Shown: positions 37,759 through 59,783, numbered from the stretch's first letter. The stretch is DNA of 64,000 bases from Deltaproteobacteria bacterium (GCA_034670305.1 JAXMNT010000003.1:160001-224000); one strand, 5' to 3'. The notes: generated by a model from the letters alone, not told the origin. Translations and numbers: made by a program.

Positions 37759-37927
37759 GCACCCAGCATTCGGAAGCGATGGCCGTCGCGACTGCTGACC
37801 TTCCGGAGAGTGAGCGCCTCCACGAGCCTGCTGGCCGGTTGTCGCGGGCGATGGAGACGACTGGCCTCGGCGGACGGTGACTCGGTCGGTGTCGCTCAGG
37901 CCGGCGCGCTTCCCGCAGATCCCAGCA

Positions 37928-39603
37928 GATCCGTCCCAGGTGCTCGCAATCAGGTTGGTCTCGTAAGGACCATTTTCGCTGGTGGGCATGTTTCGAAGCA
38001 GGGAGAGCTGCTCTGCGCCGGTCACCGGCGGCCCCGAAAGTCGTGAACGAGACCCAGTTCTGCTCGGCCTGCGCTCGATCTGGGACTGCGGACGCAGCGA
38101 TGCGCCGCGTGGGACTCACGCGGCGTGTTCGCAAACGCGGATGTGGTTACTGGGGTGGGTCGGAAGTCCGGGGTGGTCGGCCGGCAGGTTCGGTCGCGTC
38201 GCCTGACGCGCGTGGTCGACCGCGGCGGGCGTCTCGCATGACGACCACGCGGCGGGCTTCGCTTGGCTGATTCTTGTCGAAGCGATGTCGGACGACCGCT
38301 TCGGGTCGGTCGCTTGTCTCGAGCAGCTCCGCCGGGACCCGCGGGGGCTCCGACACGAACTCCATCGCTTCGGCTCGCACGACAGCCGCGGCCTCGTCCC
38401 TGAACGCGGTGCCGACTTCGGCGAGTACGCGGGCGACTTGTTCGTCGTCGGCTGTGACGGGGTTGAGCCGGAGTTCGGCCTTCACCTCGTCGAGGGTGGG
38501 CTCGGGACCAGTGATGAGCAGGGCCGGATCGGCGGGCTCGACGTCGATCGGGAAGAGCTTCCGCATCTTGTACGTGCCGTACGGAAACGGGATCGGATCG
38601 CCCGCGCGGAGCGCTTTCACGCCAGCGCGGTGGGTGCGCCGAAACGTGGTGACCTCCGTCTTGGCTTGAATGTGCACGCGGCGTCCGTTGATCCCGGAAG
38701 CACCTTGCTTGTAGCTCGGCACGACTTCGCCGCCGGCCGTCCGCCGGGTGCGGGGCTCGCTGTACGGGTGGATGCGCTTGGTGCGTTGCACACCCATCAC
38801 CGGCCACTTGCGGGCCGCGTTCAGAGCTCGGATCGCTTCTCTCTGCAGCCGGCGCATGTAGTAGATCAGCTGGTCGAGATCGCCGTTGAACTTGCGGTAC
38901 AACCGGGCGGGCGGATTGAACCACACGTTGACGTACTCGTCGCGCAGCCTCGGATCGAAGTAGAACTCTGGACGCCGCACGCGGATGGGGATCCCCTTCC
39001 ACAACGAGAAGTCGAACACGAAGCCCGGCATGTCTTCGGGCCGCCTCACGAGACCAGCGGCGACGCATTGCACGGACTCGTAGACGAGGTGGGCGGCCTG
39101 CGCTTCGGCATCGAGCAGCCGCATGTGGTGGGTCGCGCGGTCGTCGAAGATCTGACCCGGCTGGTCGTACCGCTCCCGGCCGAACAGCGTATTGAGCGCG
39201 CAACTCAGCTCGCCATGAAACAGCCGAAGGAACTCCGGGCGCTTCTCCTCGTTGTCGGTGAGGTCGAGGTGGTGGTGGTTGATGACCTTGGTCGCGCAGT
39301 GGAGGGAGACCCCCGTCTGCTGCTGCGCATGCCCCAGCGCGTACAGCCACGCCTGGTCCACACCCGGATGCCAAGGCGCCAGGAACGCCTTCCGAAAGTT
39401 CGTACGACGCGTCAGCGCATAGCTCGCACCGCGTACGACTGGCCGTGCATCAGACACGCTTCGCACAGAGCACACCCCATGCCGTCTCCGTTTCTCGGAC
39501 GTTTCAACGATTTCGGCTGGCGCCCGCCACCCAACCGCCGGCGGCCCGCCACCACCAACGGCTGCGACCCAGGCAACAGACTCTCGAGCACCTGGGACTG
39601 ATC
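37928..39603 (-). mobile_element. HUH (RAYT-like) transposase unit, copy 1, 1676 bp, 19-bp inverted ends
   Basis: Left gatccgtcccaggtgctcg (37928-37946) and right cgagcacctgggactgatc (39585-39603) are 18/19 inverted; same length as copy 2. Confidence 0.85.
38147..39457 (-). CDS. RAYT/TnpA-like HUH tyrosine transposase with long C-terminal extension (436 aa)
   Basis: YALTRRT, INHHHL (HUH), ALN, LVY....VAAGLV..PEDMPG. Confidence 0.85.
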   Translation of the reverse strand: MSDARPVVRGASYALTRRTNFRKAFLAPWHPGVDQAWLYALGHAQQQTGVSLHCATKVINHHHLDLTDNEEKRPEFLRLFHGELSCALNTLFGRERYDQPGQIFDDRATHHMRLLDAEAQAAHLVYESVQCVAAGLVRRPEDMPGFVFDFSLWKGIPIRVRRPEFYFDPRLRDEYVNVWFNPPARLYRKFNGDLDQLIYYMRRLQREAIRALNAARKWPVMGVQRTKRIHPYSEPRTRRTAGGEVVPSYKQGASGINGRRVHIQAKTEVTTFRRTHRAGVKALRAGDPIPFPYGTYKMRKLFPIDVEPADPALLITGPEPTLDEVKAELRLNPVTADDEQVARVLAEVGTAFRDEAAAVVRAEAMEFVSEPPRVPAELLETSDRPEAVVRHRFDKNQPSEARRVVVMRDARRGRPRASGDATEPAGRPPRTSDPPQ

Positions 39604-40741
39604 AGCGCGGTCGCGTGGAGAGGGGTACGCGCTCGGGGTCGACGGCGGCGGGTTTCTGGCCATCGGGTACATCACCAACTTCTCAGACGACGACGGCGGT
39701 TTCGTGCAGCTCGCCAACCCAGGCGGCGCGTTCTTGGGACCGCCGATTCGGGTTGGCGATTCTGTGCCGGGCGTGCTTGGGCTGGTCAGCCCCAGCGGAG
39801 CCGAAGACGGACCGGGCTGGCTCCTCTTTCGATACGACCGGCTGACCACGTTCATCATGATCCGGCACCTGGCGCGCGACGGCACGCTCGGTCCCGAACG
39901 GCGGCTCGGCGACCAAACGACGCGAGAGGTACGGATCTCCATCGACGCGATGGCGGACGGGGGCTTCGTCGCTGCGTGGGAGCAGGCTGTCGGCGGACGC
40001 GACACCGTCCGCGCGCGACGGTTCGATGCGTCGCTTGCCCCCATGGGCCCGTCGCTTCTCGTGCCCACCGTGGAGGACCGCGGTGAGAACTGGCCCGCGG
40101 TGGCAGGCGATGGGGACGACTGGATCGTGGTCTTCGAGAAGGAGATGCGCCGGGAAGTCGTCACGCGGGCAGTCGAGGAGATGCGCATCCGGCGCTACCG
40201 CGGAATCACCCCGCTCGGCCCGCCGACGACCATCGGCGACGCGGTCGAGATCACTCGATGGTTCGTGAGCGGTCTGACGCCCATGAACTCTGCTGCGCCC
40301 GTCGGCGGATTTTCGCTTCGCTTCATGATGGACACGCCCGAGGGCGACTTCGCCCTGCACGAACGCATCGTCACCGCGACCGACATCACGGACCCGACAC
40401 CCATCTACACCGACGCGGGCTACCTCGACATCCAGCTCGTCCCCCGCGCGCCCGCCGATGGCCGCACGATCACCACCGACACCCCGTCGCTCTTCCAGTT
40501 CAGCCTCGCGGCCTACCCCGACGAGTCCGTTCGGTTCGGCGCATACCGAAGCACGGAGCCGCTCCCGATGCGGGAGTCGATGCTGCTCGACGCGGTGTTG
40601 TTCAATGTGCGCCGATCGTTCTCGGTCGGTGAGTCTCCGCGCGGCACGTGGGTCCTTTGGGAGGCCCTACGCTCGCACCCCTCTCCGTCGATCTCGCTCT
40701 TCCTCATGCCGCACGTGACGACGGTGGAGTCCGCAGAATGA
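39604..40741 (+). pseudogene. 5'-truncated beta-rich protein, translationally coupled to the Rhs toxin
   Basis: Open frame runs back to the TGA inside the element's right end; its stop overlaps the toxin ATG (ATGA). Confidence 0.65.
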
Positions 40742-46700: not shown

Positions 46701-48846
46701 CGCGTATGCCGAGGTGCTCGACCACCTCTACGGCTGGGACGCGGCCAACAACCTCGTGTCGGTTCACAACTCAGCCCCCAACGACGCCACGACCGAGCTC
46801 GAGATCAGAAAGTACGACATCTACCACGACGCCCTCTACCGGGTGAACATGGTCGAGTACGAGTACGCCGGACCGACGGGAGGCTGGAGCCCCGACGCCC
46901 CCATCTCCGATTGGCGCGACACCCAGGCCACCAACATCGGCGCCGACCCGATGCGGCGCCAGCCCGCGCCGATGCTCCCGCAGATGGCGTCGGACCGTGT
47001 CAAGACGCTCGAGTACCGCCACGACTGGCTCGCGAACCAAGTCAGCTGGATCGACGACACCCTGGGCAGCAACGGAGAAGGCACGTCGTTCTACGAGCGC
47101 AGCATCGGCCAAGAAGGCCAGCTGGTGAACGGCGCTGACGAGGACATCGACGCGCTCCGTCCGGCGGCACTCTACTTCTCCGCCCAGCTCCCAACCGCCG
47201 CGCCGAGCTTCGACGCTGGAATCGACCGAGGCGGCTGGGTCGACCTCGAGTACGGCGAGAGCGGCAACGTCGAAGAGATGACCGTCCGCGCCCAGTGCTA
47301 CGACGCAAGCGCGATGGACGTCTGCTACGACGACACCGCCCTCGCGCTGAGCAGCCGTACAGCCCACGCCATCGCCCACTGTCGCTGCGACCGAGAGCAG
47401 CACTACCAGTACCGCTGGGACGAACTCAACCGCTTGGCCGAAGCCCGCCGCTACGACCGCGAGGGCAGCGGCGTCTGGACCCTAGAGACGAGGCAGCGCT
47501 ACCGCTACGACGCTGGCAACGTACGTACCGTGAAGCTGACATCGTCAGGCGGCATCGACCGAGCCTCGCTGTACGTGTTGCCCGGTGACTTCGAGCGTCG
47601 CGGCGTCGCGGTGGACATCGACGCGATGAACGGCGATGCGTGGAGGGCGGTCGCGGGCGTGAACACCGAGACGCAGTACCTCGTCGCTGGGGCGCGTGTG
47701 GTGTGGAAGAAGGTTCCAGAGATGGATGCGGGCGGCGGAGAGAACTTCGAGACCGACGTCCGGATCACCGTGCCGCTCGCGGACCTATTGCAGTCGACCG
47801 TCGCAAGCATGGACCTTGTTTCAGGTGAGCTGCTTGAGGTCGGCACGTACTATCCGTCGGGCAACCGCGAGATGCTGGTCGCGCGGGACAGCTCGGTGGA
47901 CGGGCAGACGTTCCAGCTCGAGCCGATCGGGTTCACCGGGAAGGAAGGGGACGACGACGTAGGGGTCGTCTACTTCGGGGAGCGGTACCTGCTGCCGCAT
48001 CTCGGGCGGTGGGCGAGTGCGGACCCGTTGCAGGTGCATGCCGGTGGTGGCGGGGAGTTTGGGAACTCTTATCACTATGTGTCGGGGAACCTGCTGCAAG
48101 CTCGGGACCCGTTGGGTTTGCAAGACCCGGCTACGAACGCGGGTCGAGCCGCTGCTCAGGCCGGAGCAGCCGCCAACGCCGTTCACAGACAAGCCGCGCA
48201 GCAAATGGCGGAGCAAACGGCCCGGCGTGGGACTGAGCGCGCGCTCCAGCGGCAGGCTGTACAACGTGCGGCAGCGGCGGGAGGCTCGGGCGCTGGCTGG
48301 GGCGCGGCCCGGTTGTTGGGGGGGTGGCTATCCGTGCTCATCATGGTGTTGACTCCCACCAACACCACCGTCAAGGATGGAAGGACTCCATCCCAGTCCG
48401 AGGCATGCTTCCAGAACGCCGACGCCGGAGCGTGTACGCAACTAGCCAGGGACCGGCCCGAGGCGCGCGAACAGGCTGAAGCCCGTCGCGAGCTTCTGGA
48501 GCGACATGCTGGTGGTCCAGAAGACGACGAACCTGGAGCTACGGATGAGCCGGAGATCGACAGTGTGGACATGGAGGATATGATCGACCACATTATCGAA
48601 CACCACATTGATGACTTCATTGATCCGGATGAGTTGACTCCCGAGCAAATTCGAGAAGAGATCAAAGGCACAATTCTAGACATTCTTCGTGATAACGACG
48701 CTCGGGAAGCGGACCGGGGCCGGACTTGGTGGCGCGACAGCCAGCGAGAAATCGTGATTATTCATGACCCTAGCACTGGTGGGACTGGATTCAGACCAAC
48801 ACACGAAGGCACCGACGACTACAATGAAGACTATACACCAGACTGA
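40738..48846 (+). CDS. secreted SpvB/TcdB-midN/YD-Rhs polymorphic toxin (2702 aa)
   Basis: Signal peptide ending AKA-Q; SGTATFSVPIALPAGRAGVQPSLGLSY...GIGW (SpvB-like); DxNGDG repeats; EFRGFG; YD repeats; YFGERY...GRWASADPL...DPLG; variable C-terminus. Confidence 0.92.
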   Translation: MTANQTSAGRPHRRAHSHSHTRRRRNQAVAVLLSVTTFLSAGAPLAAKAQDHRDSRASTPSYNLPSSVETQRTGEEMLLGDDVEGRLEHEYIDPDATSFGPGGEPIPHEGLDPEAIARMEEAADLPDPADLPDGATAAALPTGEAKSAVTPSRISVPNAEGSIEGMGESFAPVLSSGTATFSVPIALPAGRAGVQPSLGLSYASTGGNSCVGIGWNLSTPMILRQSDRGLPRYNDRDQWHVEEDRFFYNGGQELVPVDNTAASIVDASHDGSGPRYQDTHFVPGEVSDWQQYRARVEGGFMRFFRSPESDRWIVQGKDGTRFDFGLVDTHPSDLDPENALQADPADPARIYAWRLTRMSDPHGSTVYYRYLQDAGEIYPEDIFYLSPNSCAGEPDSARTCTEPLANYGVRVHFDYETRADVTSRYTAGHRIETGLRLSRLVVTAADQAGTGRSLVRRYHLAYDPSSHHSLLASVQVEGRPADTQYVGTYFEHDVFSNVSEADALSSGAVGQMLPAMTFAYTEPPSLASGIPGFGSVDATVHAITNSPDVSFDAARADLFDVNTDGLPDLIVTDPARYRTAGGEPAVGVFFNGFSGTDASPAGVAGTFSAPIAVPMPSHLSGTLNLGSQNLLPMDVDGDGRSDLMHLPRRDRYGYFVVTRESEDVTGPVTSPADQGWRFTYAQVDTGGVDPRVDLVRDGARYRTWDVNGDHLIDISRTTGTVMQTWLNLGFVRDQETGEGAEGRFGRATANDDGTFAIDASPYETCLLHDGLPVDFSDPELRTADMNGDGLVDIVKIRRGHVVYWPGRGVTETGAPVFGDGPRHCARGEGDNRERVMATPPAELNVDLSGVMLADVNMDGATDVLQVRFRELDVWFNQSGEGFTERVTIDSPMAPDFAPRIRMADIDGSGTTDLVYGSSSRWEYLDLMGGQRPRLLREVHNGLGAVTTLGYGSSADDYVADLEEAATCSDCEPFTWSRVSGDCDSRLEELSGECVYRSGGSPVVSTVVRSVTTTDQFDRLGREENISTTQFAYHDGYYEGIEQEFRGFGTADAVAVGDMSHPTAVSRTWFHQGRRPTSIATDRLAENPYESLKGRQWFSETFDEEGTFLSSAHATVTVRRLMTGLDGRDIAYAYVSQSDELRYSTDFASAPGTDLSVDWLVTEHVDDTGALVADETYPGSLPLRNSSYAHVRSRTPEVDNLGQVLTQVSDGRITDTEGYTPSGGFDEAIESYAVPVLVNGSAWIWRTAETWVDGHGTSDRLGYAVNTFDPDTGDLWHAAQEAKLPSGASYAFAGDADGAEAFTLAGAYPTSGVQTLEASTAYDAWGNPTASCAGADLHGSGVGADDCLRYAEVTYDAAFAQLPVTEAIAIHEDGAATYCDDTAEGLCLVETTAAWDRGLGVLLSATDPNADTTTVTYDGLGRLTAVEPPDAPNEDASCATDRPSTTFQYELVSEGLPVSRVTSTQLFQCNVRYMQSRSYVDGLGRARASLAYTVRNTGGQRHWQQSGIGTFSARGTPVRGYNSRYVASNDPHPTDAVGLDPSVPSTQATYDAFGRVTEAHERDGSESTMQYGALCSRSCDPLDLGDTGSGDSEAPHDDTALGTCAWAYVDGHGRGVDQVLHNAMPDGMSVADEYYRLWTTYRADGSVLSVTRAETATLSVADRTAITGSDGELHSLTRTFVYDSLGRRISGTDPDSDGRSGERWRYLYSRIGDLVAVRDPRDCGANFYYDRAGRLVGEDYVGCSEAQHSFEEPDQDTLPDSGAIALEPVSMPTLRQVDARYLFDEAPDFATGDMAPPSGSNYVGRLSGTSDRGQRSVVDYDDRGRPTWSARQMVLLPDAPTIPATLSGDDPVLYDEGDLTTVPFREWDEVNTYISTTLYNRADMVSDRYYPTDPDWSGGGSAPVVRGDMRYTFRGMPQAGEVYIDSFSQEIFETHYNEHNLAYRVYHGEQTGLSGQVIKYVYFDERLRPDRLRHVRTGAVRAGTLPELSAYAEVLDHLYGWDAANNLVSVHNSAPNDATTELEIRKYDIYHDALYRVNMVEYEYAGPTGGWSPDAPISDWRDTQATNIGADPMRRQPAPMLPQMASDRVKTLEYRHDWLANQVSWIDDTLGSNGEGTSFYERSIGQEGQLVNGADEDIDALRPAALYFSAQLPTAAPSFDAGIDRGGWVDLEYGESGNVEEMTVRAQCYDASAMDVCYDDTALALSSRTAHAIAHCRCDREQHYQYRWDELNRLAEARRYDREGSGVWTLETRQRYRYDAGNVRTVKLTSSGGIDRASLYVLPGDFERRGVAVDIDAMNGDAWRAVAGVNTETQYLVAGARVVWKKVPEMDAGGGENFETDVRITVPLADLLQSTVASMDLVSGELLEVGTYYPSGNREMLVARDSSVDGQTFQLEPIGFTGKEGDDDVGVVYFGERYLLPHLGRWASADPLQVHAGGGGEFGNSYHYVSGNLLQARDPLGLQDPATNAGRAAAQAGAAANAVHRQAAQQMAEQTARRGTERALQRQAVQRAAAAGGSGAGWGAARLLGGWLSVLIMVLTPTNTTVKDGRTPSQSEACFQNADAGACTQLARDRPEAREQAEARRELLERHAGGPEDDEPGATDEPEIDSVDMEDMIDHIIEHHIDDFIDPDELTPEQIREEIKGTILDILRDNDAREADRGRTWWRDSQREIVIIHDPSTGGTGFRPTHEGTDDYNEDYTPD

Positions 48847-49375
48847 TAAGGTGCCTGTGCTTCTGGGAGCCGCCGCTCTTGAAGGCGCAAGAGGTGGACC
48901 AACATTCTTGATTCGATACCGAGGAGATCTGGCGGTCAATCCACAGGATTGGATTCGAGCGTCGGGAGGGTCCGGTCCGCTAGAGGTGACCTTCAAGACA
49001 TATGGAACCGCGGAGTTTTTTGCGATTCCATGGGGTGAGAACTCGAGAATGGTTGTGCTGCACAGTAGCCGATTCTGCCAGTTCTCGATCTACTGGGATG
49101 TCCGCTTTGATGTGGGACTGCCCAAACTGCCATTTCCAAGGCACCCCGACCAGGAATGCCTCGTGGAAGATGCTGTACACCAGTCGGTCTTGGACTCCAT
49201 TCGACGACTTCGATCGGCCCAAGAGGGCTTGGCGATGGCGGTATGCGATGAAGGCTGGGGCACAATTCGGATTCCAGACAACCTCTCCGTCTACCTTCCC
49301 GCATCCATGGTACCTGAGGCGCGACGGGAATCGAGAGACTGGGTCGAAGGGTTCTACGTTTTTGATCCCTCGTGA
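48824..49375 (+). CDS. cognate immunity protein candidate for toxin tip 1
   Basis: Lower-GC ORF overlapping the toxin stop; no signal peptide or TM visible. Confidence 0.72.
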   Translation: MKTIHQTDKVPVLLGAAALEGARGGPTFLIRYRGDLAVNPQDWIRASGGSGPLEVTFKTYGTAEFFAIPWGENSRMVVLHSSRFCQFSIYWDVRFDVGLPKLPFPRHPDQECLVEDAVHQSVLDSIRRLRSAQEGLAMAVCDEGWGTIRIPDNLSVYLPASMVPEARRESRDWVEGFYVFDPS

Positions 49376-49494
49376 CTAGAGATCCTCACCCGCAACCCCG
49401 GCGGTTACACCCGTCCTGGATCACGATCGAGTGGGGTATGACTGGTCACCTCTCGCAAGATCTCAAGGAGCGTATCGTCCGCCGCAGCCGCGCT
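49376..49494 (+). mobile_element. IS630-family 5' remnant
   Basis: Begins at a TA (cTAga); ATG 49438 encodes MTGHLSQDLKERIV, like the IS630 SxDLRERV N-terminus; cut by an element-end motif. Confidence 0.5.
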
Positions 49495-49660
49495 GCGCTG
49501 ATCCGTCCCAGGTGCTCCATCGTCGCAGCAGATCCGTCCCAGGTGCTCGCACTCAGGTTGGTCTCCTAAGGACCATTTTCACTGGTCGTCTGCAGCAGAT
49601 CCTGGTCGTCTGCAGCAGATCCGTCCCAGGTGCCAGGCTCCGGCAGATCCGTCCCAGGTG
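49495..49660. repeat. cluster of four gatccgtcccaggtg element-end motifs
   Basis: Copies at about 49500, 49531, 49618 and 49646, with a short internal duplication ctggtcgtctgcagcagatcc. Confidence 0.88.
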
Positions 49661-50391
49661 TTGGCGGCCGATTTGACGTCGTAGTGCGCGACCGTTTTGG
49701 CGTCGTAGGTTCTTGGGCGGATGGCCGGATTGCGGTCGTATCTGTGGGCCGTTTCCGTCGTAGCGACGGGGCGGTCTACGACCGGCGCGGCCGCTCGACG
49801 GCCTGATCTCGCTCGCCGCTTGCGATGACAGTGCGGTCGCGATCTCCGGACGCGTCTGCGCCCCGCGCGGCGTTGGCGGCGCGGGGCGCGGACGCGCGGA
49901 GCGCTGTCTCAGAAGATGGTTTCGCGGGTCCAGTGGGGCTGGAGTAGGACGCGGTTGACGTGCTTGAGGTCGACGGTGCGGGTGCTGCCGCGGACGGCTT
50001 CGAGCAGGGTTGCGACGCAGAGGTTGCGTGCGTGTCGGAGGATGCCTTCGCTTGAGCGGACGACGAGCGCGAGCGCGTCGGGGGTGAAGACGTTGTGCGC
50101 GAGGGCGACGCGATCGAGCTCCCGGAGGATGAAGGCTTCCATGTCGTCGGGCGCGAGCTTTCGGACGAGGACGGAGTAGGTGACGCGGCTTCGGATGTCG
50201 TCGTTGATGGTCAGCGAGAGCCGGTGCAGGAGCGACGGCTGCGCGACGAGGACGAGGTTGTGGTTCTTGGGGAAGTCCTCGAAGAGGAGACGCAATCGAC
50301 GGAGCGAGTGCATGTCGAGCAGGTGCGCGTCGTCGATGATCGGGACGAGCATTTTGCCGAGGTGGTTGATGCTCGTAATGGATGCCTTCGA
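49659..50391 (-). mobile_element. remnant of a TGT-ended transposon carrying an ExeA/GspA-type AAA ATPase
   Basis: End begins tgttggcggccgatttgacgtcgtag with repeated cgtcgtag boxes; homologous end at 54825. Confidence 0.6.
49909..50391 (-). pseudogene. 5'-truncated ExeA/GspA-like AAA ATPase
   Basis: Walker B IIDDAHLL, LVLVAQPSL, SEGILRHARNLC; Walker A missing. Confidence 0.75.
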
Positions 50392-50844
50392 GATCAGTGC
50401 CAGGTGCGGCGATCTCTGTGCTTGAGGGTGTGGCCTTCGTCGGGTGGCGGACCGCCGGCGGTTGGGTGGCGGCCGCCACCCCATCCTCCACATTTTCTCC
50501 GACACTGCGGCTCGGCACGACCAGTTGTCCGGGGTGGGTGTTATGCGCTGACCCGCCGGACCAGTTTCCGAAAAGCGTTCCTCGCTCCGTGGCATCCGGG
50601 CGTGGACGAGGCCTGGCTGTACGCGCTCGGGCATGCGCAGCAGCAGACGGGCGTCTCACTCCACTGCGCGGCCAAGGTCATCAACCATCACCACATCGAC
50701 ATCACGGACAACGAGGAGAAGCGGCCCGAGTTTCTCCGCCTGTTTCACGGCGACCTGAGTTGCGCCCTCAACACGCTCCTCGGGCGAGAGCGGTACGACC
50801 AGCCGGGCCAGCTCCTCGACGATCGCCCGACGCACTGCATGCGG
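50392..50844 (+). pseudogene. diverged 5' half of the HUH transposase unit, opposite orientation
   Basis: Starts gatcagtgccaggtgc; encodes YALTRRTSFRKAFLAPWHPG...INHHHI...THCMR, then stops at the end of copy 2. Confidence 0.85.
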
Positions 50845-50849
50845 ACGCA

Positions 50850-52525
50850 GATCCGTCCCAGGTGCTCGCGCTCAGGTTGGTCTCCTATGGACCATTTCAC
50901 CCGTGGGCATGTTTCGAAGCAGGGAGAGCTGCTCTGCGCCGGTCACCTGCGGCCCCGAATGTCGTGAACGAGGACCCAGTTCTGCTCGGCCCGTGCTCGA
51001 TCTGGGACTGGGGACGCAACGATGCGCCGCGCGGGATTCACGCAGCGTGTTCGCAAACGCGGATGTGGTTACTGGGGTGGGTCGGAAGTCCGGGGTGGTC
51101 GGCCGGCAGGTTCGGTCGCGTCGCCTGACGCGCGTGGTCGACCGCGGCGGGCGTCTCGCATGACGACCACGCGGCGGGCTTCGCTTGGCTGATTCTTGTC
51201 GAAGCGATGTCGGACGACCGCTTCGGGTCGGTCGCTTGTCTCGAGCAGCTCCGCCGGGACCCGCGGGGGCTCCGACACGAACTCCATCGCTTCGGCTCGC
51301 ACGACAGCCGCGGCCTCGTCCCTGAACGCGGTGCCGACTTCGGCGAGTACGCGGGCGACTTGTTCGTCGTCGGCTGTGACGGGGTTGAGCCGGAGTTCGG
51401 CCTTCACCTCGTCGAGGGTGGGCTCGGGACCAGTGATGAGCAGGGCCGGATCGGCGGGCTCGACGTCGATCGGGAAGAGCTTCCGCATCTTGTACGTGCC
51501 GTACGGAAACGGGATCGGATCGCCCGCGCGGAGCGCTTTCACGCCAGCGCGGTGGGTGCGCCGAAACGTGGTGACCTCCGTCTTGGCTTGAATGTGCACG
51601 CGGCGTCCGTTGATCCCGGAAGCACCTTGCTTGTAGCTCGGCACGACTTCGCCGCCGGCCGTCCGCCGGGTGCGGGGCTCGCTGTACGGGTGGATGCGCT
51701 TGGTGCGTTGCACACCCATCACCGGCCACTTGCGGGCCGCGTTCAGAGCTCGGATCGCTTCTCTCTGCAGCCGGCGCATGTAGTAGATCAGCTGGTCGAG
51801 ATCGCCGTTGAACTTGCGGTACAACCGGGCGGGCGGATTGAACCACACGTTGACGTACTCGTCGCGCAGCCTCGGATCGAAGTAGAACTCTGGACGCCGC
51901 ACGCGGATGGGAAGCCCCTTCCACAACGAGAAGTCGAACACGAAGCCCGGCATGTCTTCGGGCCGCCTCACGAGACCAGCGGCCACGCATTGCACGGACT
52001 CGTAGACGAGGTGGGCGGCCTGCGCTTCGGCATCGAGCAGCCGCATGTGGTGCGTCGCGCGGTCGTCGAAGATCTGACCCGGCTGGTCGTACCGCTCCCG
52101 GCCGAGCAGCGTATTGAGCGCGCAACTCAGCTCGCCATGAAACAGCCGAAGGAACTCCGGCCGCTTCTCTTCGTTGTCGGTGAGATCGAGGTGGTGGTGG
52201 TTGATGACCTTGGTCGCGCAGTGGAGGGAGACCCCGGTCTGCTGTTGCGCATGCCCCAGCGCGTACAGCCACGCCTGGTCCACGCCCGGATGCCAAGGAG
52301 CCAGGAACGCCTTCCGAAAGTTCGTACGACGCGTCAGCGCATAGCTCGCACCGCGCACGACTGGCCGTGCATCAGACATGCTTCGCACAGAGCACACCCC
52401 ATGCCGTCTCCGTTTCTCGGACGTTTCAACAATGTCGGCTGGCGCCCGCCACCCAACCGCCAGCGGCCCGCCACCCCGAACGGCTGCGACCAAGGCAACA
52501 GACTTTCGAGCACCTGGGACTGATC
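50850..52525 (-). mobile_element. HUH (RAYT-like) transposase unit, copy 2, 1676 bp
   Basis: Inverted ends 50850-50868 and 52507-52525; right end repeated again at 52554-52572. Confidence 0.85.
51069..52379 (-). CDS. RAYT/TnpA-like HUH tyrosine transposase (436 aa), near-identical to 38147-39457
   Basis: Same motifs; only two visible amino-acid differences (F/L, I/L). Confidence 0.85.
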   Translation of the reverse strand: MSDARPVVRGASYALTRRTNFRKAFLAPWHPGVDQAWLYALGHAQQQTGVSLHCATKVINHHHLDLTDNEEKRPEFLRLFHGELSCALNTLLGRERYDQPGQIFDDRATHHMRLLDAEAQAAHLVYESVQCVAAGLVRRPEDMPGFVFDFSLWKGLPIRVRRPEFYFDPRLRDEYVNVWFNPPARLYRKFNGDLDQLIYYMRRLQREAIRALNAARKWPVMGVQRTKRIHPYSEPRTRRTAGGEVVPSYKQGASGINGRRVHIQAKTEVTTFRRTHRAGVKALRAGDPIPFPYGTYKMRKLFPIDVEPADPALLITGPEPTLDEVKAELRLNPVTADDEQVARVLAEVGTAFRDEAAAVVRAEAMEFVSEPPRVPAELLETSDRPEAVVRHRFDKNQPSEARRVVVMRDARRGRPRASGDATEPAGRPPRTSDPPQ

Positions 52526-52588
52526 AGCGCGACTAGATAAGGCAACAGACTTTCGAGCACCTGGGACTGATCAGCGCGACTCGCGCGG

Positions 52589-54217
52589 CACTGCCGCTGC
52601 GACCGAGAGCAGCACTACCAGTACCGCTGGGACGAGCTGAACCGGTTGGCAGAGGCCCGCCGCTACGATCGCGAGGGGACCGGCGTCTGGACCCTAGAGA
52701 CGAGGCAGCGCTACCGGTACGACGCTGGTAACGTACGTACCGTGAAGCTGACATCGTCAGGCGGCATCGACCGTGCCTCGCTGTATGTGTTGCCTGGTGA
52801 CTTCGAGCGTCGCGGCGTCGCGGTGGACATCGACGCGATGAACGGCGATGCGTGGAGGGCGGTCGCGGGCGTGAACACCGAGACGCAGTACCTCGTCGCT
52901 GGGGCCCGCGTGGTCTGGAAGAAGTCTCCAGAGATGGACGCCGGCGGCGGAGAGAACTTCGAGACCGACGTCCGGATCACCGTGCCTCTCGCGGACCTAT
53001 TGCAATCGACCGTTGCAAGCATGGACCTGGTGTCTGGCGAGCTGCTTGAGGTGGGTACGTACTACCCGTCGGGCAACCGCGAGATGTTGGTCGCGCGCGA
53101 CAGCTCGGTGGATGGGCAGACGTTCCAGCTGGAGCCGATCGGGTTCACCGGGAAGGAAGGCGACGACGATGTTGGGTTGGTCTACTTCGGGGAGCGGTAT
53201 TTGATGCCGCATCTTGGGCGGTGGGCCAGTGCGGATCCGCTGCAGGTGCATGCCGGGGGTGGTGGGGAGTTTGGGAACTCTTACCACTATGTAAGTGGGA
53301 ACCTGTTGCAGGCGCGGGACCCGTTGGGGCTGAGCGGCCCGGTCAAGAAGAACCCGGGTGTACAACTGGAGGCATCCACTGACTACACTGAGCGAGTGCA
53401 CTCGCAGACCGAACAGTTCCAGGTTGGTGAGTGGGAGGCGTTCCAGCGGCAGGCACGGGAACACGTTGGCTGGACAGCCATGCGCGAGCGCGCCGCAGCA
53501 CTAGTAGAAGGGAGCGCGACACTCCACGAGGCATGGTCGGCTGCCCGTGAGGCTGGCGGGGATCACGCGGAGGTATCGATTCGATATGTATGGGAGCGTC
53601 GGGCCGAAGGCGCACCAGAAACCATCGCCAGAATAGAGTTCGCTCTGATTGACGCCGCCCCAGCCCCCCCCCCTCCTCCCCCTCCCCCCGACGATGACCC
53701 CGTTAGTTATGTCGAAGAACGCGATCCGTCCGTGACGATCGAGGCACCTCGCGCTATCGATGTTCCGTACGGTGTGACACTTGGCCTCGGGGGTTTCGCA
53801 ATGATCGCTGGAGATCGGGAGCGACGGGTTCACGTCGGAGTCTATCTACAAATTGGGTTCGATGGCACCGCAAAAGTAAGCGATTTCGGTGCCTATGTGG
53901 GCGCTCAGGTCGCGATGACAAACAACCGAGGGATCGAATTTGGAGCCCAGATAGATGCGTCCTTGCAACCGGTCATAGGTGCGTTGTCCGGCGCAGAGTA
54001 CACGTTGGAGGCTGGTAACTCTGGATGGGGAGAGCGGAACATCGCCATGCAAGGAGCCCTGAGCGAAGACGGGATGGAATCACCGGATTCTCTTACGATC
54101 GGCCAGACGCACCATGCGAGCTTCAATCTGGCTCCAGTAACGATTGAAACCCACGGCGGGGTTGGGCAAGAGGCCTATCTATCTCTGCCAGCACTGGTAG
54201 AGTCATTGCTCGAGTAG
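52589..54217 (+). pseudogene. orphan Rhs module: distal core plus a different C-terminal toxin tip
   Basis: 52589-53332 is homologous to 47377-48120 (HCRCDREQHYQY...DPLGL); unrelated after DPLGL; no N-terminal region. Confidence 0.9.
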
Positions 54218-54251
54218 CAATGGCAACTAGCCGGACTGAGTTTGGTCATTC

Positions 54252-54812
54252 ATGCGACTGCATAGCCTATACCGTCTCCTCACAGAACCAGATGGCGGCG
54301 CGTTCCGCGCCGTGTTCGGCGCGACATCCGTGTTTGTAAATATGCCGATCGGATTGCGCGAACAGCTCTTGAGTCAAGGTGTACAGATTTCGAACGTTCG
54401 CGGTTCTTCCGCAATTGACCTGCGTCGGGTGCCCGCGGATCAACACGATCATCAGGGGCCAGTCGGAGTGAGAGTTTGTCCGCAGTCAGGAGGAACTGCG
54501 CGGCTGTGTCCCGTTTGGGATGAATCCAGCTCGATGCGCGATCTTAGGGACTTGAGTGCCCTGATAACGGTGGGAACGGTGCTAATTAGCCCGCCGGCGA
54601 TAGCGATCATCATTGCGCTACAGGTTGTTGGTGACCAAGCGTCGGTTGGAACAGTTGTCGCGCTGCCCATCGCTTGCGCCTGTTTGGTGCTTCTCGTCGC
54701 ACTCATGAAGCGGGTTCGAGCGAAGGCGATCGGTCAATACAAGTGGCTACGAGTGGCCTTGAACAGTGCGGGTGTGTCCGAGTTACCGTCCCCCGAAGCG
54801 ACGCCAAACTGA
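54252..54812 (+). CDS. immunity protein candidate for the orphan tip (two TM helices)
   Basis: Low-GC ORF 34 bp after the orphan tip; two hydrophobic segments. Confidence 0.65.
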   Translation: MRLHSLYRLLTEPDGGAFRAVFGATSVFVNMPIGLREQLLSQGVQISNVRGSSAIDLRRVPADQHDHQGPVGVRVCPQSGGTARLCPVWDESSSMRDLRDLSALITVGTVLISPPAIAIIIALQVVGDQASVGTVVALPIACACLVLLVALMKRVRAKAIGQYKWLRVALNSAGVSELPSPEATPN

Positions 54813-54824
54813 CGCTGGGCTTGA

Positions 54825-54935
54825 TGTTAGCGGCCGATTTGATGGCTGATTTGACGTCGTAGGGATTGGGGCGGACGGCCGGGTTGTGGTTTGTGGGCCG
54901 GGTCCGTCGTAGCGAGGCGCGCTTCTACGACGATG
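54825..54935. mobile_element. second copy of the TGT-ended transposon terminus
   Basis: tgttagcggccgatttg...gatttgacgtcgtag...tccgtcgtagcga...ctacgac matches 49659-49785. Confidence 0.6.
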
Positions 54936-54944
54936 CGCAGAGCA

Positions 54945-55596
54945 GGTCCGTCCCAGGTGCTCGCACTCAGGTTGGTCTCAGAAGGACCAGTTCGGCTGGC
55001 GGGGGTGTTCTGAAGCAGGGCGAGCTGCGCTGCACGGTCACCGGCGGTCCAAAAATTGGGTGAACGAGACCCAGTTCTGCTCGGCCTGCGCTCGATCTGG
55101 GACTGCGGACGCAACGATGCGCCGCGCGGGACTCACGCAGCGTGTTCGCAAACGCGGATGTGGCTACTGGGGTGGGTCGGAAGTCCGAGGTGGTCGCTCG
55201 GCAAGTTCGGCCGCGTCGCCTGACGCTCGTGGTCGACCGCGGCGGGCGTCTCGCATGACGACGACGCGGCGGGCCTCGCTGGGCTGATTCTTGTCGAAGC
55301 TTCCTCTTGGGGGCACGGCCCCCAAACCCCGTCCGGTGACACCGCTGGCTCGCTTCGCGAGGCTGCGCGCTGTCGAGTGCTCGACCTGCGCTTCGGGTCG
55401 GTCGCTCGTCTCGAGCAACTCGGCCGGGACGCGCGGGGGCTCCGATACGAACTCCATCGCTTCGCCTCGGACGACAGCCGCGGCCTCGTCCTTGAACGCG
55501 GTGCCGACTTCGGCGAGCACGCGCGCGACTTGTTCGTCGTCGGCGATGACGGGGTAGCCGGAGCTCGGCCTTCACCTCGTCGAGGGTGGGCTCGGG
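54945..55596 (-). pseudogene. 3' fragment of the HUH transposase unit with end motif and trailer
   Basis: ggtccgtcccaggtgctcg end; encodes VLAEVGTAFKDEAAAVVR...RPPRTSDPPQ; small deletion plus an insert at ~55300-55388. Confidence 0.85.
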
Positions 55597-55599
55597 AGC

Positions 55600-56472
55600 T
55601 CAGGCAGCCGCGGAAGCGGTTGTTGCGACCTCGTCGCCGTGGAGCCAGTCCGCGGCTTTCTGGGCGGCAGACGCGGTCCTGAGTAGGACTCGTGGGTCGG
55701 CGCGAAGGACTCGAACCCAGTGGTCGAGGTAGGCCACATGCTGCAGCTCGCCTGGGAGTCCGAACTCCGCACAGAGGAACGCGGCGCCCATCTCGGCGAT
55801 GAGTTCCTCCCGCGCATACACATCGTCTCCGAAGCGTCCCTGCTTCCGGTCGAGTCGGCTGGGGTGCGCGGTCGCGTGCACCAGCTCATGCATCAGCGTG
55901 GCGTAGTAGTTGCCGTGGTCCGAGAAGGACGTTCGATCTGGCAGCTGGATCGCGTCTTCCGTGGGGGTGTAGTGCGCTTGGTCCCCTCCGTGCCGGATGT
56001 CGATCCCGGTCGCTTCCACCCACTTGTCGACGCGCTCATCGGTGACGACATCGGCATCTTCTTTGTGAACATCTGGGAGTCCATCGCACTGCTCCAAGTT
56101 GAACACGGCAGCGCTTCCCGATACCCAACGCGGGCGGGCGCCGGGCTCCTCATCCGGCGCTGGGTCCCTCGGGCGCCAGAACACGACGCGGGTCGCGCGC
56201 TCTCCCTTTCGGACGTGGCCGCCAAGTGCGATGGCTTGCCGGTAGGTACACCACCAGCGTTCTTGGAACCCACGACTTCGCATTGCGGACCAGAGGATCA
56301 GGATGTTGATGCCCCGATAGACGCGGTTCGTCGTGAGGTTGGCGGGTCTTCCGCCATCGGTTGACCAGGGGGCAATCCAGGGAGGAACGCCACCCTCCTC
56401 AAGATCTCGAACCAGCTCCATCGCTACGGTCTCGTGCAGCGCGGCGCGCGCTGCATTCTTCTTCTTTCGCAT
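55600..56472 (-). CDS. ardC: ArdC-family antirestriction / ssDNA-binding protein
   Basis: PPWIAPW, YRGINILIL, TYRQA..LGGHVRKGE, VFNLEQ, HELVHAT, YAREELIAEMGAAFLC; GGAGG RBS. Confidence 0.9.
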   Translation of the reverse strand: MRKKKNAARAALHETVAMELVRDLEEGGVPPWIAPWSTDGGRPANLTTNRVYRGINILILWSAMRSRGFQERWWCTYRQAIALGGHVRKGERATRVVFWRPRDPAPDEEPGARPRWVSGSAAVFNLEQCDGLPDVHKEDADVVTDERVDKWVEATGIDIRHGGDQAHYTPTEDAIQLPDRTSFSDHGNYYATLMHELVHATAHPSRLDRKQGRFGDDVYAREELIAEMGAAFLCAEFGLPGELQHVAYLDHWVRVLRADPRVLLRTASAAQKAADWLHGDEVATTASAAA

Positions 56473-56574
56473 CGTGGTCCTCCTGGGAGAACCAACCACT
56501 CGGGCTCTTCCCGACTACTTAGAAGGGGTCCCCGAATCTGAGTTTGCAAGATTGGATCGACGCTTGGACGGATC

Positions 56575-56830
56575 CCGCCCCCAGCGCTGTCGGCTCCTCA
56601 CGTCTGCGATGTAGACCGTGGTGGATCGGGAGGCGGCCTGGTCGGTCGCCCGCGTGGTCGAGGGCTGTGGCTGTCGAAGCGATGTTGGACAAGCGGCTCG
56701 GGTCGGTCGCTTGTCTCAAAGCAACTCGGCGGGTACGCGCTGGGGCTCCGACACGAACTCGAGCGCTTCGGCTCGCACGACAGCCGCGGACTCTTCCTTG
56801 AACGCTGTGGCGACTTCGGAGAGGACGCGC
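56575..56830 (-). pseudogene. degenerate internal fragment of the HUH transposase C-terminal region
   Basis: gtcgaagcgatgttggac...ggctccgacacgaactc...cggctcgcacgacagccgcgg aligns with 38276-38432. Confidence 0.75.
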
Positions 56831-57586
56831 ATGGTAGGGAGGGTGGATGAAGGGAACGATCGAAGCGCATCTCGCGGTGGTCAGGAATGGGCAGGTGCGA
56901 TTCGACGGGAACTCGCCGGGGTCCTGAAGGTGCGGGGTGGCCAGGTGCATTTTCGACCCTCGTCGTCCGGCGTCACGATGGTCGGCCTGCACCCCGAACG
57001 ACCGCAACGCGGCAAGGGTGGCTACCGCGATCTCGCGAAGCTGGCGTCTGACTTCGACGCCGAGTTTCGGAAGCACTGCGTGGACATCGACCAAGGCCGA
57101 CCCACGGAAGAGAAGGAACTCCAAAGTTGGCTCGTCGCCCACGCCCAGACGCACGACGGAGCGCTCACGCCACTCTTCCCGAATGGCGAAGTCGTCTTCG
57201 TCACCGACGAGATCCCGGTCCCCCACGACAGCGGCCGCATCGTGTGCGACTTGCTCGCCGCAAGGATCATCGGACCAGGTCGCATTCGACCCGTGTTGAT
57301 CGAGCTCAAGAGCGAGCGCGCCATGAAACGTCTCGTCGAACAAGTCACCTCCTACGCCGCCATCATTGACGCACACCCCAAGCTCTTCGAAGACCTCTAC
57401 GGCGCCCTGCTCGGCAAACCGGTGCTGTCTGATCGAACCGCAGTCCGCTTCGAAGGGGGCGTCGAGAAACACATCGTCTGGCCAGCCCCACCATCCGGAG
57501 GCGAACCCCGCCGAGCGAAGCTCGCCACCCTCGACATCGCAGTCCACACCTACACCCGCACAGCCAACGGCTTCGCCTTCGGCTGA
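56831..57586 (+). CDS. PD-(D/E)XK-like nuclease
   Basis: EKELQSWL, CDLLA, LIELK, EQVTSYA: the E...D...ExK...QxxxY pattern. Confidence 0.65.
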   Translation: MVGRVDEGNDRSASRGGQEWAGAIRRELAGVLKVRGGQVHFRPSSSGVTMVGLHPERPQRGKGGYRDLAKLASDFDAEFRKHCVDIDQGRPTEEKELQSWLVAHAQTHDGALTPLFPNGEVVFVTDEIPVPHDSGRIVCDLLAARIIGPGRIRPVLIELKSERAMKRLVEQVTSYAAIIDAHPKLFEDLYGALLGKPVLSDRTAVRFEGGVEKHIVWPAPPSGGEPRRAKLATLDIAVHTYTRTANGFAFG

Positions 57587-57735
57587 CCTCGAGCCGAAAC
57601 CGAAAGACCCGCGGAGGATCAGGGACATCGAAGTTCTCAACCCAGACAGGTGGTTGACGTTTTTGACGTTGGTCGACGTTCGGCCACACCGCCAGAGTCG
57701 TTGTCAGATCCGCCAGGCTTGGTCGTCTTGGGAAT

Positions 57736-59583
57736 ATGACAACGAGCCACGAACAAGCGGGTGCGCGGGCCGGAGAGAGTTCCTCCCTCGCCGACCTCCG
57801 TCCCGTTTGCGACGCGAGCTTTGTGCAGAAGCTGCGCGCGATTCGCGACACCCTCACGGAAGGCCTGGTGGAACGCGAGGTGGCGGTGCGGCTGAGTCTT
57901 CTCGCTGCGCTGGCCGGTGAGCACTTGTTGATGCTCGGTCCGCCGGGAACGGCCAAGAGTCTGATCGCCCGTCGCCTTCATCTCGCCTTCAGCGAGTCCA
58001 CGTACTTCGAGAGACTGCTGACCCGGTTCACGGTTCCTGAGGAACTCTTCGGGCCGCTGTCGATCAAGGGCCTCGAAGAGGACCGCTATGAACGACTGAC
58101 CGACGCTTACCTGCCCAAGGCCTCGATCGCCTTTCTCGATGAGATATTCAAGGCGAACAGCGCCATCCTCAACTCCCTGCTGACCCTCCTCAACGAACGG
58201 GAGTTCGACAACGGCGTCTCGCGCGACGAGACACCACTCGTCGCTGTCATCGGTGCGAGCAACGAACTTCCGGAAGGGGAGGAACTCGACGCGCTCTTCG
58301 ATCGGTTCTTGCTGCGGCTCCATGTAGGTCCTGTGACCAAGGACGCTTTCCCGACACTTCTGGCTCTCCGCGATCGGGCTGTGCCCGAGGTCGCGCACGA
58401 GCTGAAGCTCGATGCCCAGGAACTGCTGGCGGTGCAGAACGCGGCGGCCGCGGTAGAGGTCCCCCCGGATGTCACTGCGCTGCTGTGCGACCTACGAGAT
58501 TGGTGCACGGCCGAGGACGTTCAGGTCTCGGACCGCCGGTGGCGCAAGGTCGTCAAGTTGCTCCAGGTCTCGGCTGCGACGCATGGACGTACTCAGGTCT
58601 CCATCTGGGACTGTTGGCTGCTCCAGCACTGTGTTTGGAACACGCCGGAGGCACGGGAGAAGGTCTTTGAGTGGTATGCCGCGCGCGTGGGAGCGTCGGC
58701 GGTCATGAACCCTGAACGTCTCACGAGAATCGTGGTCTCGTTTGAGGCCCGGCTGAAGGCGAACCGTGAGAGTCGGTCGCAGACCCGTGACGACCAGGGA
58801 CGGCTCGTGTTCAAGGATGCGCACGGTAAACGCACTTTCGAAGTGACGGGCCCGGCACAGAAGCGGCGCGGAGAGGATGTCTTGTTTCTCGCGCCGGCCA
58901 ACGGCCTGCTCGGCTGCGATAGACTTCATGACCGGACGAACGGCGGCGCGGGCTACACGCGGGACGAGCTGAACAACATTCAGGTCGGTGGGAGTCACTA
59001 TGATCGGCAACGCTTCGGCAGATGGTCGGGCAGGGACGCGTACTTGGCCGACCCGAACAACTGGCTCATGGAGGACGTCGCGTTCGCGCCGGTCTTGGAG
59101 CCGACCCGATTCAGCGGGTTCTACGTCGAAGGAGTCCGCGGCGAACTCGGGAAGCTGAAGGAAGAGGTCGGCGGGTACCTCGAAGGGCTCCTGCAGCACC
59201 TCGATTCGTTGAAGGCCGACATCTGCGATCACCTCTGGGTCTTGCCTGAGTTCGCGGAGCTCGCAGCACAGAATCTGGAGCAGACCCGAAGGGACGTCGA
59301 CGCCCTGCTGATGCGGGTGGATGAGCTGCACGCGGGTTTCGAGGCCCTACCACGCGAAGTGGCCGTGCGCTCCGTCCGGGGGACTCGCTCCTGGCACGCT
59401 TTTGAACGTGGTCTGAGGGTGTCGTTGGGTCGCTCGCGTCCTTGCTCGGCTCGTCGCTCAGTCCGCTCGGGCCAGCGAAGCGGGTCCCGAACCTCTGTTT
59501 CGCTGGTTCTGCGTTCTTGCGTCTTGCTTCGGACGCAGGTGTGCGCGGCTCGGGCTGTTGCCGGGCCGCGCTTTGGCTCTTGA
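57736..59583 (+). CDS. RavA/MoxR-family AAA+ ATPase; 3' end replaced by element sequence from ~59366
   Basis: GPPGTAKS, TRFTVPEELFGPLSI, FLDEIFKANSAILNSLL, ASNELP, SDRRW. Confidence 0.88.
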   Translation: MTTSHEQAGARAGESSSLADLRPVCDASFVQKLRAIRDTLTEGLVEREVAVRLSLLAALAGEHLLMLGPPGTAKSLIARRLHLAFSESTYFERLLTRFTVPEELFGPLSIKGLEEDRYERLTDAYLPKASIAFLDEIFKANSAILNSLLTLLNEREFDNGVSRDETPLVAVIGASNELPEGEELDALFDRFLLRLHVGPVTKDAFPTLLALRDRAVPEVAHELKLDAQELLAVQNAAAAVEVPPDVTALLCDLRDWCTAEDVQVSDRRWRKVVKLLQVSAATHGRTQVSIWDCWLLQHCVWNTPEAREKVFEWYAARVGASAVMNPERLTRIVVSFEARLKANRESRSQTRDDQGRLVFKDAHGKRTFEVTGPAQKRRGEDVLFLAPANGLLGCDRLHDRTNGGAGYTRDELNNIQVGGSHYDRQRFGRWSGRDAYLADPNNWLMEDVAFAPVLEPTRFSGFYVEGVRGELGKLKEEVGGYLEGLLQHLDSLKADICDHLWVLPEFAELAAQNLEQTRRDVDALLMRVDELHAGFEALPREVAVRSVRGTRSWHAFERGLRVSLGRSRPCSARRSVRSGQRSGSRTSVSLVLRSCVLLRTQVCAARAVAGPRFGS

Positions 59584-59783
59584 AGCCCGCTGAGGTAGTT
59601 CAGTCGGGGTCTTTGTCGGCTCGAGGAGTTCCGCCTGGTCTGAGGAGGTCTCGGCGGACGGTGACTCGGTCGGTGTCGCTCAGGCCGGGACGGCTTCCGT
59701 AGCGGTCGCGGACGGGGTGGGGCGCCATCGGAGGTTGGATGCTCGGTCGCTTGGTGGCGCTCTTCTGCTCGTTCCGGTCCGTG
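59367..59783. repeat. direct repeat A: 3' end and trailer of the diverged HUH transposase
   Basis: Highly similar to 61265-61611. Confidence 0.88.

Follow-up and report, generated by a model that had tools for sequence, protein, structure and literature searches.

We analysed a 64,000-nucleotide stretch of DNA from a Deltaproteobacteria bacterium (GCA_034670305.1, JAXMNT010000003.1:160001-224000), which we call the window. It corresponds to positions 160001-224000 of contig C3 in a genome of 7.9 Mb and 105 contigs that we label G000. The window carries a full-length Rhs gene with a variable tip and candidate immunity open reading frames (ORFs), and further downstream an orphan Rhs with a different tip and its own putative immunity gene. 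Both cassettes are bracketed by termini of a 1.69-kb insertion sequence (IS) that encodes a RAYT-like HUH/Y1 enzyme. The family to which this element belongs is strongly biased to the 3′ region of Rhs loci, and its copies may make core fragment, tip and immunity gene exchangeable as one unit. The features of the locus are collected in Table 1.

An 18-nt motif, GATCCGTCCCAGGTGCTC, has ten matches across the window when up to three mismatches are allowed. They lie on the + strand at 37928, 49500, 49531, 49618, 49646, 50850 and 54945, and on the − strand at 39586, 52508 and 52555. Shuffled versions of the window contain 0.11 matches on average, and ten were reached in 0 of 100 shuffles. A first-pass annotation, made from the sequence alone, had read such motifs as HUH-element ends bracketing the two cassettes. 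The brackets are indeed present, but the motifs in them do not stand alone; each marks a terminus of a complete or partial copy of a single repeated element. The copies concerned are A and B and a truncated copy C, all in direct orientation on the same strand. Copy A has its left end, GCAGATCCGTCCCAGGTGCTCG, at 37925 and its right end at 39585-39609. The full-length Rhs gene lies between this right end (motif at 39586-39603) and four left-end motifs (49500-49663), as the annotation had described for the full toxin-immunity pair.

The orphan is bracketed in the same way. Its core (52589-53341) is 5′-truncated and is 95% identical to the main gene in nucleotides and 97% in amino acids (232 residues, tblastn). 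Similarity ceases after the core, and the orphan tip (53342-54217, 291 amino acids) differs from the main tip. The nucleotide homology (47377-47676 in the main gene versus 52589-52888 in the orphan, 95%) sets in at 52589. As previously claimed, this is 16 bp past the end of a GATCCGTCCCAGGTGCTC motif at 52572 in a duplicated right end; measured from the end as defined by the comparison of copies A and B (..GATCAGCGCG at 52578), the distance is 10 bp. The duplication is a perfect tandem of the copy B right end (52492-52534 and 52539-52581, 100% identical, with a 47-bp period). The left-end motif that had been noted on the far side of the orphan cassette is also confirmed (54945-54962): it belongs to copy C and begins 130 bp past the stop of the orphan's immunity-position ORF at 54812.

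Table 1. Features of the Rhs locus, in coordinates of the window
Feature	Position	Strand	Basis or remark
Element copy A, complete, 1.69 kb	37922..39612	-	Repeat families D1-D8, inverted pair I16, blastn, pairwise copy comparison
Gene for 442-aa RAYT-like HUH/Y1 protein (P0001) in copy A	38147..39475	-	
346-aa ORF between copy A and Rhs start	39704..40741	+	No Pfam family
Full-length Rhs protein, 2732 aa	40648..48846	+	SpvB, TcdB_toxin_midN, FG-GAP, RHS repeats (Pfam)
Low-GC region with two overlapping candidate immunity ORFs (48764-49375, 49002-49379)	48764..49379	+	ORF list; GC 0.54-0.57
Array of four left-end motifs, some truncated	49494..49665	+	Repeats D4-D6, blastn
5′-truncated AAA ATPase fragment (AAA_22 / TIGR03015-like)	49909..50370	-	Pfam and NCBIfam match, ORF residues 88-230 only
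Fragment E′: right end and first ~115 codons of a related element, inverted	50385..50844	+	Inverted repeats I1-I4, tblastn
Element copy B, complete	50844..52534	-	Gene 51069-52397, 99% identical to copy A gene
Second, tandem copy of right end	52539..52581	-	Family D8
Orphan Rhs	52589..54217	+	Repeat D3, tblastn, TIGR03696 Rhs_assc_core E 1.1e-14 (orphan ORF residues 157-229)
Putative immunity gene of orphan tip, 186 aa	54252..54812	+	35 bp downstream of orphan; by position only
Partial copy C: left end and last third of gene	54939..55597	-	79-93% identical; stops at ArdC-like gene

The tip of the full-length Rhs protein begins at about 48133 and has no assigned family. Searches of both tips and of the putative immunity proteins gave no Pfam family even at E ≤1. 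The two overlapping ORFs that are alternative candidates for the immunity gene of the main tip matched no family in Pfam or NCBIfam. The orphan's putative immunity protein likewise matched no family in these two databases, and no relative of it was found in the genome contigs searched. Downstream of both cassettes lie regions containing GTCGTAG, which have short repeats in common and no homology at the blastn level. The ORF between copy A and the Rhs start overlaps the latter by 94 nt and has a native-like GC content at third codon positions (0.84).

Between the two cassettes, the remains of further elements are layered. The second motif of the left-end array at 49494-49665 runs 60 bp into sequence of the element interior. 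The AAA ATPase fragment terminates where fragment E′ starts. This fragment is 84-85% identical to the element (tblastn gives 84% to residues 5-120 for C3:210500-210847), and its gene is interrupted by the left end of copy B, so that one element copy is inserted into the gene of a related one. Contigs from four metagenome runs span 50074-50932, which supports the junction of E′ and copy B.

The protein of the element, P0001, matches the NCBIfam RAYT model (NF047646) weakly, though over its full length, with residues 11-149 (E 7e-4). Its score of 19.4 bits is far below the equivalog cut-off of that model, which is 80 bits. We aligned 32 homologs with 32-70% identity. The RAYT model is matched by 19 of these 32 at E ≤0.1, with a best E value of 1.2e-10, while none matches a relevant Pfam family, including Y1_Tnp (PF01797), at E ≤1. 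The residues H59, H67 and Y132 are invariant in the alignment, and H69 is conserved in at least 90% of its members (N-H-H-H). The tyrosine occurs in the context Y-E-x-x-N-x-V-A-A-G-L-V within a helix of the structural model (residues 123-134), a motif that is the signature of RAYT and IS200 enzymes.

From the 32-homolog alignment, AlphaFold gave a confident model with a pLDDT of 84 and a pTM of 0.80. Foldseek matched it with probability 1.00 to the ISDra2, IS608, S. tokodaii and IS200 transposases and to the E. coli RAYT; for the matches to Y1 TnpA proteins, the TM score normalized on the target was 0.59-0.69. VIA-align, which effectively covered model residues 12-244 and 260-285, ranked the RAYT-REP complex 4er8 clearly first (Z 12.8, root-mean-square deviation 3.0, 156/165 residues aligned) and IS608 TnpA (2vhg) next (Z 8.1). 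Within the residues covered, VIA-align found no clear structural match for the approximately 200 residues past the RAYT-like part. A profile search of PDB sequences gave nothing significant, its best hit being an unrelated repressor (E 0.031). The RAYT-like nature of the enzyme, as proposed in the first-pass annotation, is thus confirmed by the RAYT profile, the conserved HUH and tyrosine residues, Foldseek and VIA-align, and a member of the HUH/Y1 superfamily would be expected to nick and join single-stranded DNA. Several other ORFs had been considered as the gene of the element, including 438-aa ORFs on the + strand and several on the − strand; Pfam gave nothing for them, and the real gene is the one at 38147-39475 (−).

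The genome contains three full copies of the element, A, B and D, in addition to fragments. Copy D is on another contig (C6:108818-110611). In blastn comparisons, the identities among A, B and D are 100%, 97.7% and 96%, with copy B 97.7% identical to copy A. The Rhs gene beside copy D (locus L001, 2580-11204, on C6) is split over three overlapping frames (2580-4715, 4169-7954 and 7278-11204), which could reflect frameshifts or assembly errors. A GC-rich repeat of about 72 bp is also inserted in copies C and D, at an identical position towards the 3′ end of the HUH gene (55305-55376 in the window and C6:109200-109301). This repeat, which resembles a MITE- or REP-like element, has at least 89 blastn matches on 47 contigs of the genome and coincides with a 30-40-fold spike of depth in metagenome contigs.

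The termini of the element are imperfect inverted repeats of 22 bp, 91% complementary (pair I16): GCAGATCCGTCCCAGGTGCTCG versus GCTGATCAGTCCCAGGTGCTCG. Comparison of copies within the genomes G120, G037 and G022 revealed similar inverted termini, and by eye, the common terminal core is roughly GGA(T/A)C(C/G)GTCC..GT. In G001, the left-end core is retained, and the right end has only a weak inverted match. Before or after the ends, there are tandem stutter arrays of truncated end tips that recur across genomes. In G000, these are at 49494-49665, 37910-37925 and 52492-52581. Others occur in G001 (L005:9740-10050), in G120 at both ends (with up to about eight right-end units), in G022 and in G037. 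Many stutter units terminate in ..CC. Across the 7.9 Mb of G000, the GATCCGTCCCAGGTGCTC motif has 20 matches, most of which, by their coordinates, are at or beside copies or fragments of the element; genome-wide dispersal of the motif was not observed. One solo motif on contig C60 adjoins an apparent tRNA gene, according to a reading by eye.

Relatives of the protein number 128 in the database, and most are on contigs of 1.5-2 kb. One source gives a few of them the label “putative transposase”. When 201 sampled genomes of the same order were searched with a profile, 91 contained the family, a tally that takes in the unpublished genome G123, on which no other result rests. The named relatives of the G000 genome are metagenome-assembled genomes of Polyangiales, Sandaracinaceae and Myxococcales. 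The family is usually present in multiple copies, often at contig ends. Short contigs of the kind typical of repeats, the multiple copies, the location at contig ends and the nested insertion all correspond to the behaviour of an active IS. Judging from these sequence patterns, the family behaves as an active IS and not as a domesticated single-copy RAYT. An alternative in which the RAYT-like gene is domesticated and its REP-like arrays serve the Rhs operon in cis, for example as terminators or in mRNA stability, could draw on the fold and on the inverted motif copies with local arrays around the gene, but it is highly improbable, given near-identical multiple copies, short contigs and contig ends in many genomes, only 20 motif matches without genome-wide spread, and nested copies that are in effect evidence of recent transposition.

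The enrichment of the element next to Rhs genes was measured in 11 genomes, scanned in full with the family profile A1 (at least 400 bits) and the model for the Rhs-associated core (TIGR03696). Of 37 close-family copies, 12 are within 10 kb of the end of an Rhs core and 10 are within 5 kb. Given the number of cores and the size of each genome, 0.42 copies would be expected within 10 kb (Poisson P ~5e-14). By genome, the copies within 10 kb are 3/3 in G000, 2/3 in G120, 3/6 in G001, 1/2 in G023, 1/1 in G163 and 2/5 in G022, and they are 0/4 in G037, 0/5 in G160, 0/2 in G013, 0/2 in G135 and 0/4 in G060. The annotation had suggested a comparison with other accessory DNA, and for this we used the rve-type transposases (PF00665): none of the 64 that these 11 genomes contain is within 10 kb (Fisher P ~1e-6). 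The enrichment next to Rhs relative to this control is therefore confirmed. Among the second five genomes, which were picked blind to the outcome, 4 of 14 copies are within this distance.

Counted from the Rhs side in a hand tally, 11 of 56 Rhs cores have a copy within 10 kb, at similar rates for long frames (5/26) and for short, orphan-like frames (6/30). A separate set of 47 loci contributed two further positive genomes, at loci L040 and L068, a count that is a lower bound because tblastn missed at least one Rhs gene found with a hidden Markov model (at L036). For a subfamily of distant paralogs of about 300 amino acids, the coordinates in the first five genomes place no member within 10 kb of an Rhs core; the closest approach is that of a weak match 9 kb from the Rhs core of G037. 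In G163 (L028, C5:76000-95999), two paralogs of the distant type (27% identity) are side by side between two Rhs genes that are on the opposite strand, so the link to Rhs may extend past the close family. In G023 (L014:11295-11981, contig C6), a SUKH-1 / SMI1_KNR4 gene adjoins a HUH copy with no Rhs core detected nearby. Proteins of the SUKH-1 / SMI1_KNR4 family are often the immunity proteins of polymorphic toxins.

Two positions recur. The first is immediately past a full-length Rhs gene and its immunity-position ORF. The end motif begins 115 bp past the immunity-position stop of the main gene in G000, against the 130 bp at the orphan, about 10 and about 75 bp past it in two G120 loci, and about 10 bp past it in G022 (contig C39). 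The distance is thus 10-130 bp at these five loci, although their immunity-position ORFs are non-homologous.

In the second position, an end of the element is fused, within about 15 bp, to a 5′-truncated Rhs core that reads away from it. This was found in three genomes. In G000, the right end is followed by 10 bp and then the truncated core. In G022 (L027, contig C146), a left-end stutter lies directly against the truncated core, and at L040, the truncated core begins at the left-end tip. The 5′ part of the Rhs gene is never on the opposite side of the element in these three abutting junctions, and its absence means that they are not simple insertions. Their Rhs-side sequences have no common target sequence. 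The G001 cluster has three copies in direct orientation, interleaved with two Rhs orphans. A Barstar-family gene follows one orphan, and an IS630-type element interrupts the other. Both G000 (copies A, B and C) and G001 accordingly have cargo enclosed by IS copies in direct repeat.

In G120, small genes located between the immunity-position ORF and the HUH gene are flanked on both sides by arrays of right-end motifs (L012:10959-11330, and 11082-11321 in the reverse complement of L013). One is a Cys-rich ORF of 124 amino acids, and the other (80 amino acids) resembles, by eye, the N-terminus of an IS110-type transposase.

The element probably helps to form the orphan boundary. Beyond this, we propose that IS copies make junctions and portable direct repeats, and thereby make “core fragment - tip - immunity” a unit that can be exchanged. 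We put the probability of this reading at roughly 0.5. The first junction of IS and core would need one insertion of the element into a core. From an array of IS, cassette and IS, the cassette and one IS copy could then be released, through recombination of the two IS copies with each other or through the enzyme, as a circular unit with the order “core fragment - tip1 - imm1 - IS”. A single crossover between this unit and the conserved core of a resident Rhs gene would give the resident full-length gene the incoming tip1. The old tip2 would be left behind as an orphan, and its truncated core would abut the IS terminus that was formerly the circle junction. The predicted order would be the main Rhs gene, tip1, imm1 and left ends, followed by copy B with its right end against the core fragment, tip2, imm2 and the left end of copy C, which is the order observed. 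The crossover scheme fits the junctions, the direct-repeat arrays and a core identity of 95% rather than 100%. The succession of events, a circular unit and a catalytic role of the enzyme in cassette movement are inferences on our part; ordinary homologous recombination between direct IS copies explains the geometry of the brackets equally well.

Several observations weigh against the proposal of an exchangeable unit. Contigs from the four metagenome runs, all of one study, contain no circle, deletion or alternative junction over 46800-56200, where all contig joints are explained by repeats (the copy A flank, a solo left end and a paralogous stretch). However, contigs cannot show rare forms, and the lack of a circle junction therefore says nothing either way. 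A comparison of the flanks of about 15 copies found neither a target-site duplication nor a conserved flanking target; the left flanks have no common sequence, and stutter arrays mask the true tips. Folding of both strands of both ends gave no hairpin signal relative to shuffled sequences (z -0.11 to 0.81). The element does not keep one orientation with respect to the Rhs gene: it is convergent in G000 and co-directional in G120, although with near-symmetrical termini this difference may be of little matter. With regard to the enrichment, G037, G160, G013, G135 and G060 together have 0 of 17 copies near an Rhs core, and the first five genomes were picked with prior knowledge that two of them, G001 and G120, were positive. 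Clustered copies, and genomes of one order, are not independent, and per locus, the count is 9 of 32. Finally, 25 of the 37 copies are away from Rhs, among housekeeping genes, defence genes and other IS genes.

This last number also fits a passive association. DNA past Rhs genes or within redundant orphan cores might simply tolerate insertions, such that an active IS accumulates there and deletions truncate the result, with no role for the element in the cassettes. Other IS types do occur in the same loci (IS630-type DDE_3 and DDE_Tnp_1 in the G001 cluster, and ISL3 and rve in G037), and ends of the element also abut other truncated genes, namely the AAA ATPase fragment and the breakpoint on the ArdC side. 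The lack of circles in the metagenome contigs is likewise compatible with passive co-location. Nevertheless, we consider this explanation rather unlikely. Tolerance of insertions does not readily account for the difference between rve transposases and the family within 10 kb of Rhs core ends (0/64 versus 12/37), for three abutting junctions that keep only the 3′, tip-bearing part of Rhs beside the element, or for an end motif that lies at so limited a distance from the immunity-position stop in five loci with unrelated ORFs.

The opposite possibility is that the enzyme moves the cassettes actively, by nicking and rejoining single-stranded DNA at the motifs. The arrays would then be attC-like sites or products of rolling-circle read-through. 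The truncated-tip arrays at boundaries in G000, G001, G120, G022 and G037, whose ..CC ends look as if they arose by repeated nicking and rejoining, are consistent with this possibility, as are the small G120 genes bracketed by right-end arrays. In addition, the closest structure, 4er8, belongs to an enzyme that cleaves and joins REP hairpin DNA. However, a cassette that is between elements and flanked by outward-facing ends does not have the geometry of the element's own substrate. Moreover, neither a circle junction in the contigs nor a hairpin signal in the ends was detected, and nested insertions and deletions could equally well have left the arrays behind. HUH-catalysed movement is therefore unlikely in our judgement. 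A more specific version holds that the motif arrays past immunity genes are recombination sites of the RAYT-like enzyme and thus an integron- or Helitron-like platform for toxin tips. If it were true, a HUH nickase would capture, excise and re-insert units of core fragment, tip and immunity gene, which would explain how orphans are acquired in Polyangiales, but we regard it as quite unlikely.

The idea of the first-pass annotation that HUH ends mobilise tip-immunity cassettes is consequently upheld in part. The enrichment and the truncated cores at IS termini in three genomes speak for an involvement of the element. The part of the idea that invokes movement by the enzyme fares less well, given that no circle and no target-site duplication was found, and that about two thirds of the copies are in unrelated contexts. 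The circular intermediates and variable cassette orders that it had envisaged did not appear in the metagenome contigs, which are blind to rare forms.

The element combines properties of several known systems. It resembles RAYT (TnpA_REP, PDB 4er8) in its best structural match, in the HUH histidines and in the tyrosine helix (Y-x-x-x-N-x-V-x-A-G-L-V). As in RAYT/REP systems, a short motif lies in inverted copies on both sides of the gene and also clusters in tandem. Classical RAYTs are single-copy and vertically inherited, and their motif is dispersed as REP/REPIN sequences. By contrast, the element is mobile and multi-copy (three full copies plus fragments), and its motif, with about 20 copies, is not dispersed. 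The protein is also longer than a RAYT, with 442 amino acids, of which about 290 C-terminal residues are additional and have no clear structural relative.

The Y1 HUH fold, the small size with one enzyme and the lack of a visible target-site duplication are reminiscent of IS200/IS605 elements (TnpA of IS608 and ISDra2). However, elements of that group have no terminal inverted repeats, whereas those of the new element are imperfect and about 20 bp long. In addition, the protein is about three times longer, and there is no tnpB gene. IS200/IS605 elements have subterminal hairpins at both ends; no convincing ones were found here, where the ends fold no better than shuffled sequences. A long RAYT-like HUH enzyme that belongs to no Pfam family, together with inverted-repeat ends and stutter arrays, fits neither IS200/IS605 nor classical RAYT/REPIN.

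With respect to cargo, the closest analogy is to IS26 translocatable units and pseudo-compound transposons. These also involve direct IS arrays with cargo (as in G000, G001 and G037), no target duplications and ends fused to truncated genes. IS26 has a DDE transposase, and its circular unit is documented; here, the enzyme is of the HUH/Y1 type and the circular unit is a proposal.

An association of IS elements with Rhs tips is not new in kind, since H-repeats have long been known among the tips of E. coli. IS-like H-repeats are described as recurrent among C-terminal tips downstream of E. coli rhs genes, and their transposition as never observed (PMC3032704). The H-repeat is of the ISAs1 type, with an unrelated type of transposase, and differs from the present element, whose copies are intact, nested and found across many genomes. 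The orphan itself looks like those of Rhs and CDI tip displacement, in that a segment of core, 95% identical, is retained ahead of a different tip and an immunity-position ORF. The tip-displacement model has no mobile element at the 5′ edge of the orphan, whereas in three genomes, this edge is an IS terminus. In the type VI secretion system arrays of V. cholerae, effector/immunity modules are reportedly displaced sequentially by homologous recombination.

New tips of Rhs and other polymorphic toxins, and their orphan arrays, are still explained mainly by homologous recombination, with donor forms that are unknown. A specific, widespread and apparently active mobile family that is tied to exact cassette boundaries in several genomes is a concrete molecular candidate. 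In the portions of the literature accessible to our search, we found no published link of RAYT or HUH enzymes with Rhs or with polymorphic toxins.

We now note properties of more distant paralogs and neighbouring genes. Distant paralogs of the HUH protein, with 32-34% identity over residues ~8-282, occur in the window at 59600-61237 (−) and elsewhere in the genome at C44:11588-12430 and C34:55526-56305. They are located within longer open frames of 545-915 amino acids. In other genomes, members of the ~300-aa paralog subfamily often have one in-frame TAG or TGA within the match.

Two ORFs adjoin copy C, at 55600-56499 (−) and 56519-57640 (−). Directly at the breakpoint of copy C is an ArdC-like antirestriction/metallopeptidase gene. 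The ORF next to it, of 373 amino acids and without a family, contains a stretch that is 56% identical to residues 347-409 of the HUH protein, so that a segment of the HUH C-terminal tail is common to another gene. Adjoining the paralogous HUH gene in the window is a MoxR-type AAA ATPase (57736-59583, +; bpMoxR, E 2.4e-60). The bpMoxR family is that of the MoxR-vWA-beta-propeller ternary system.

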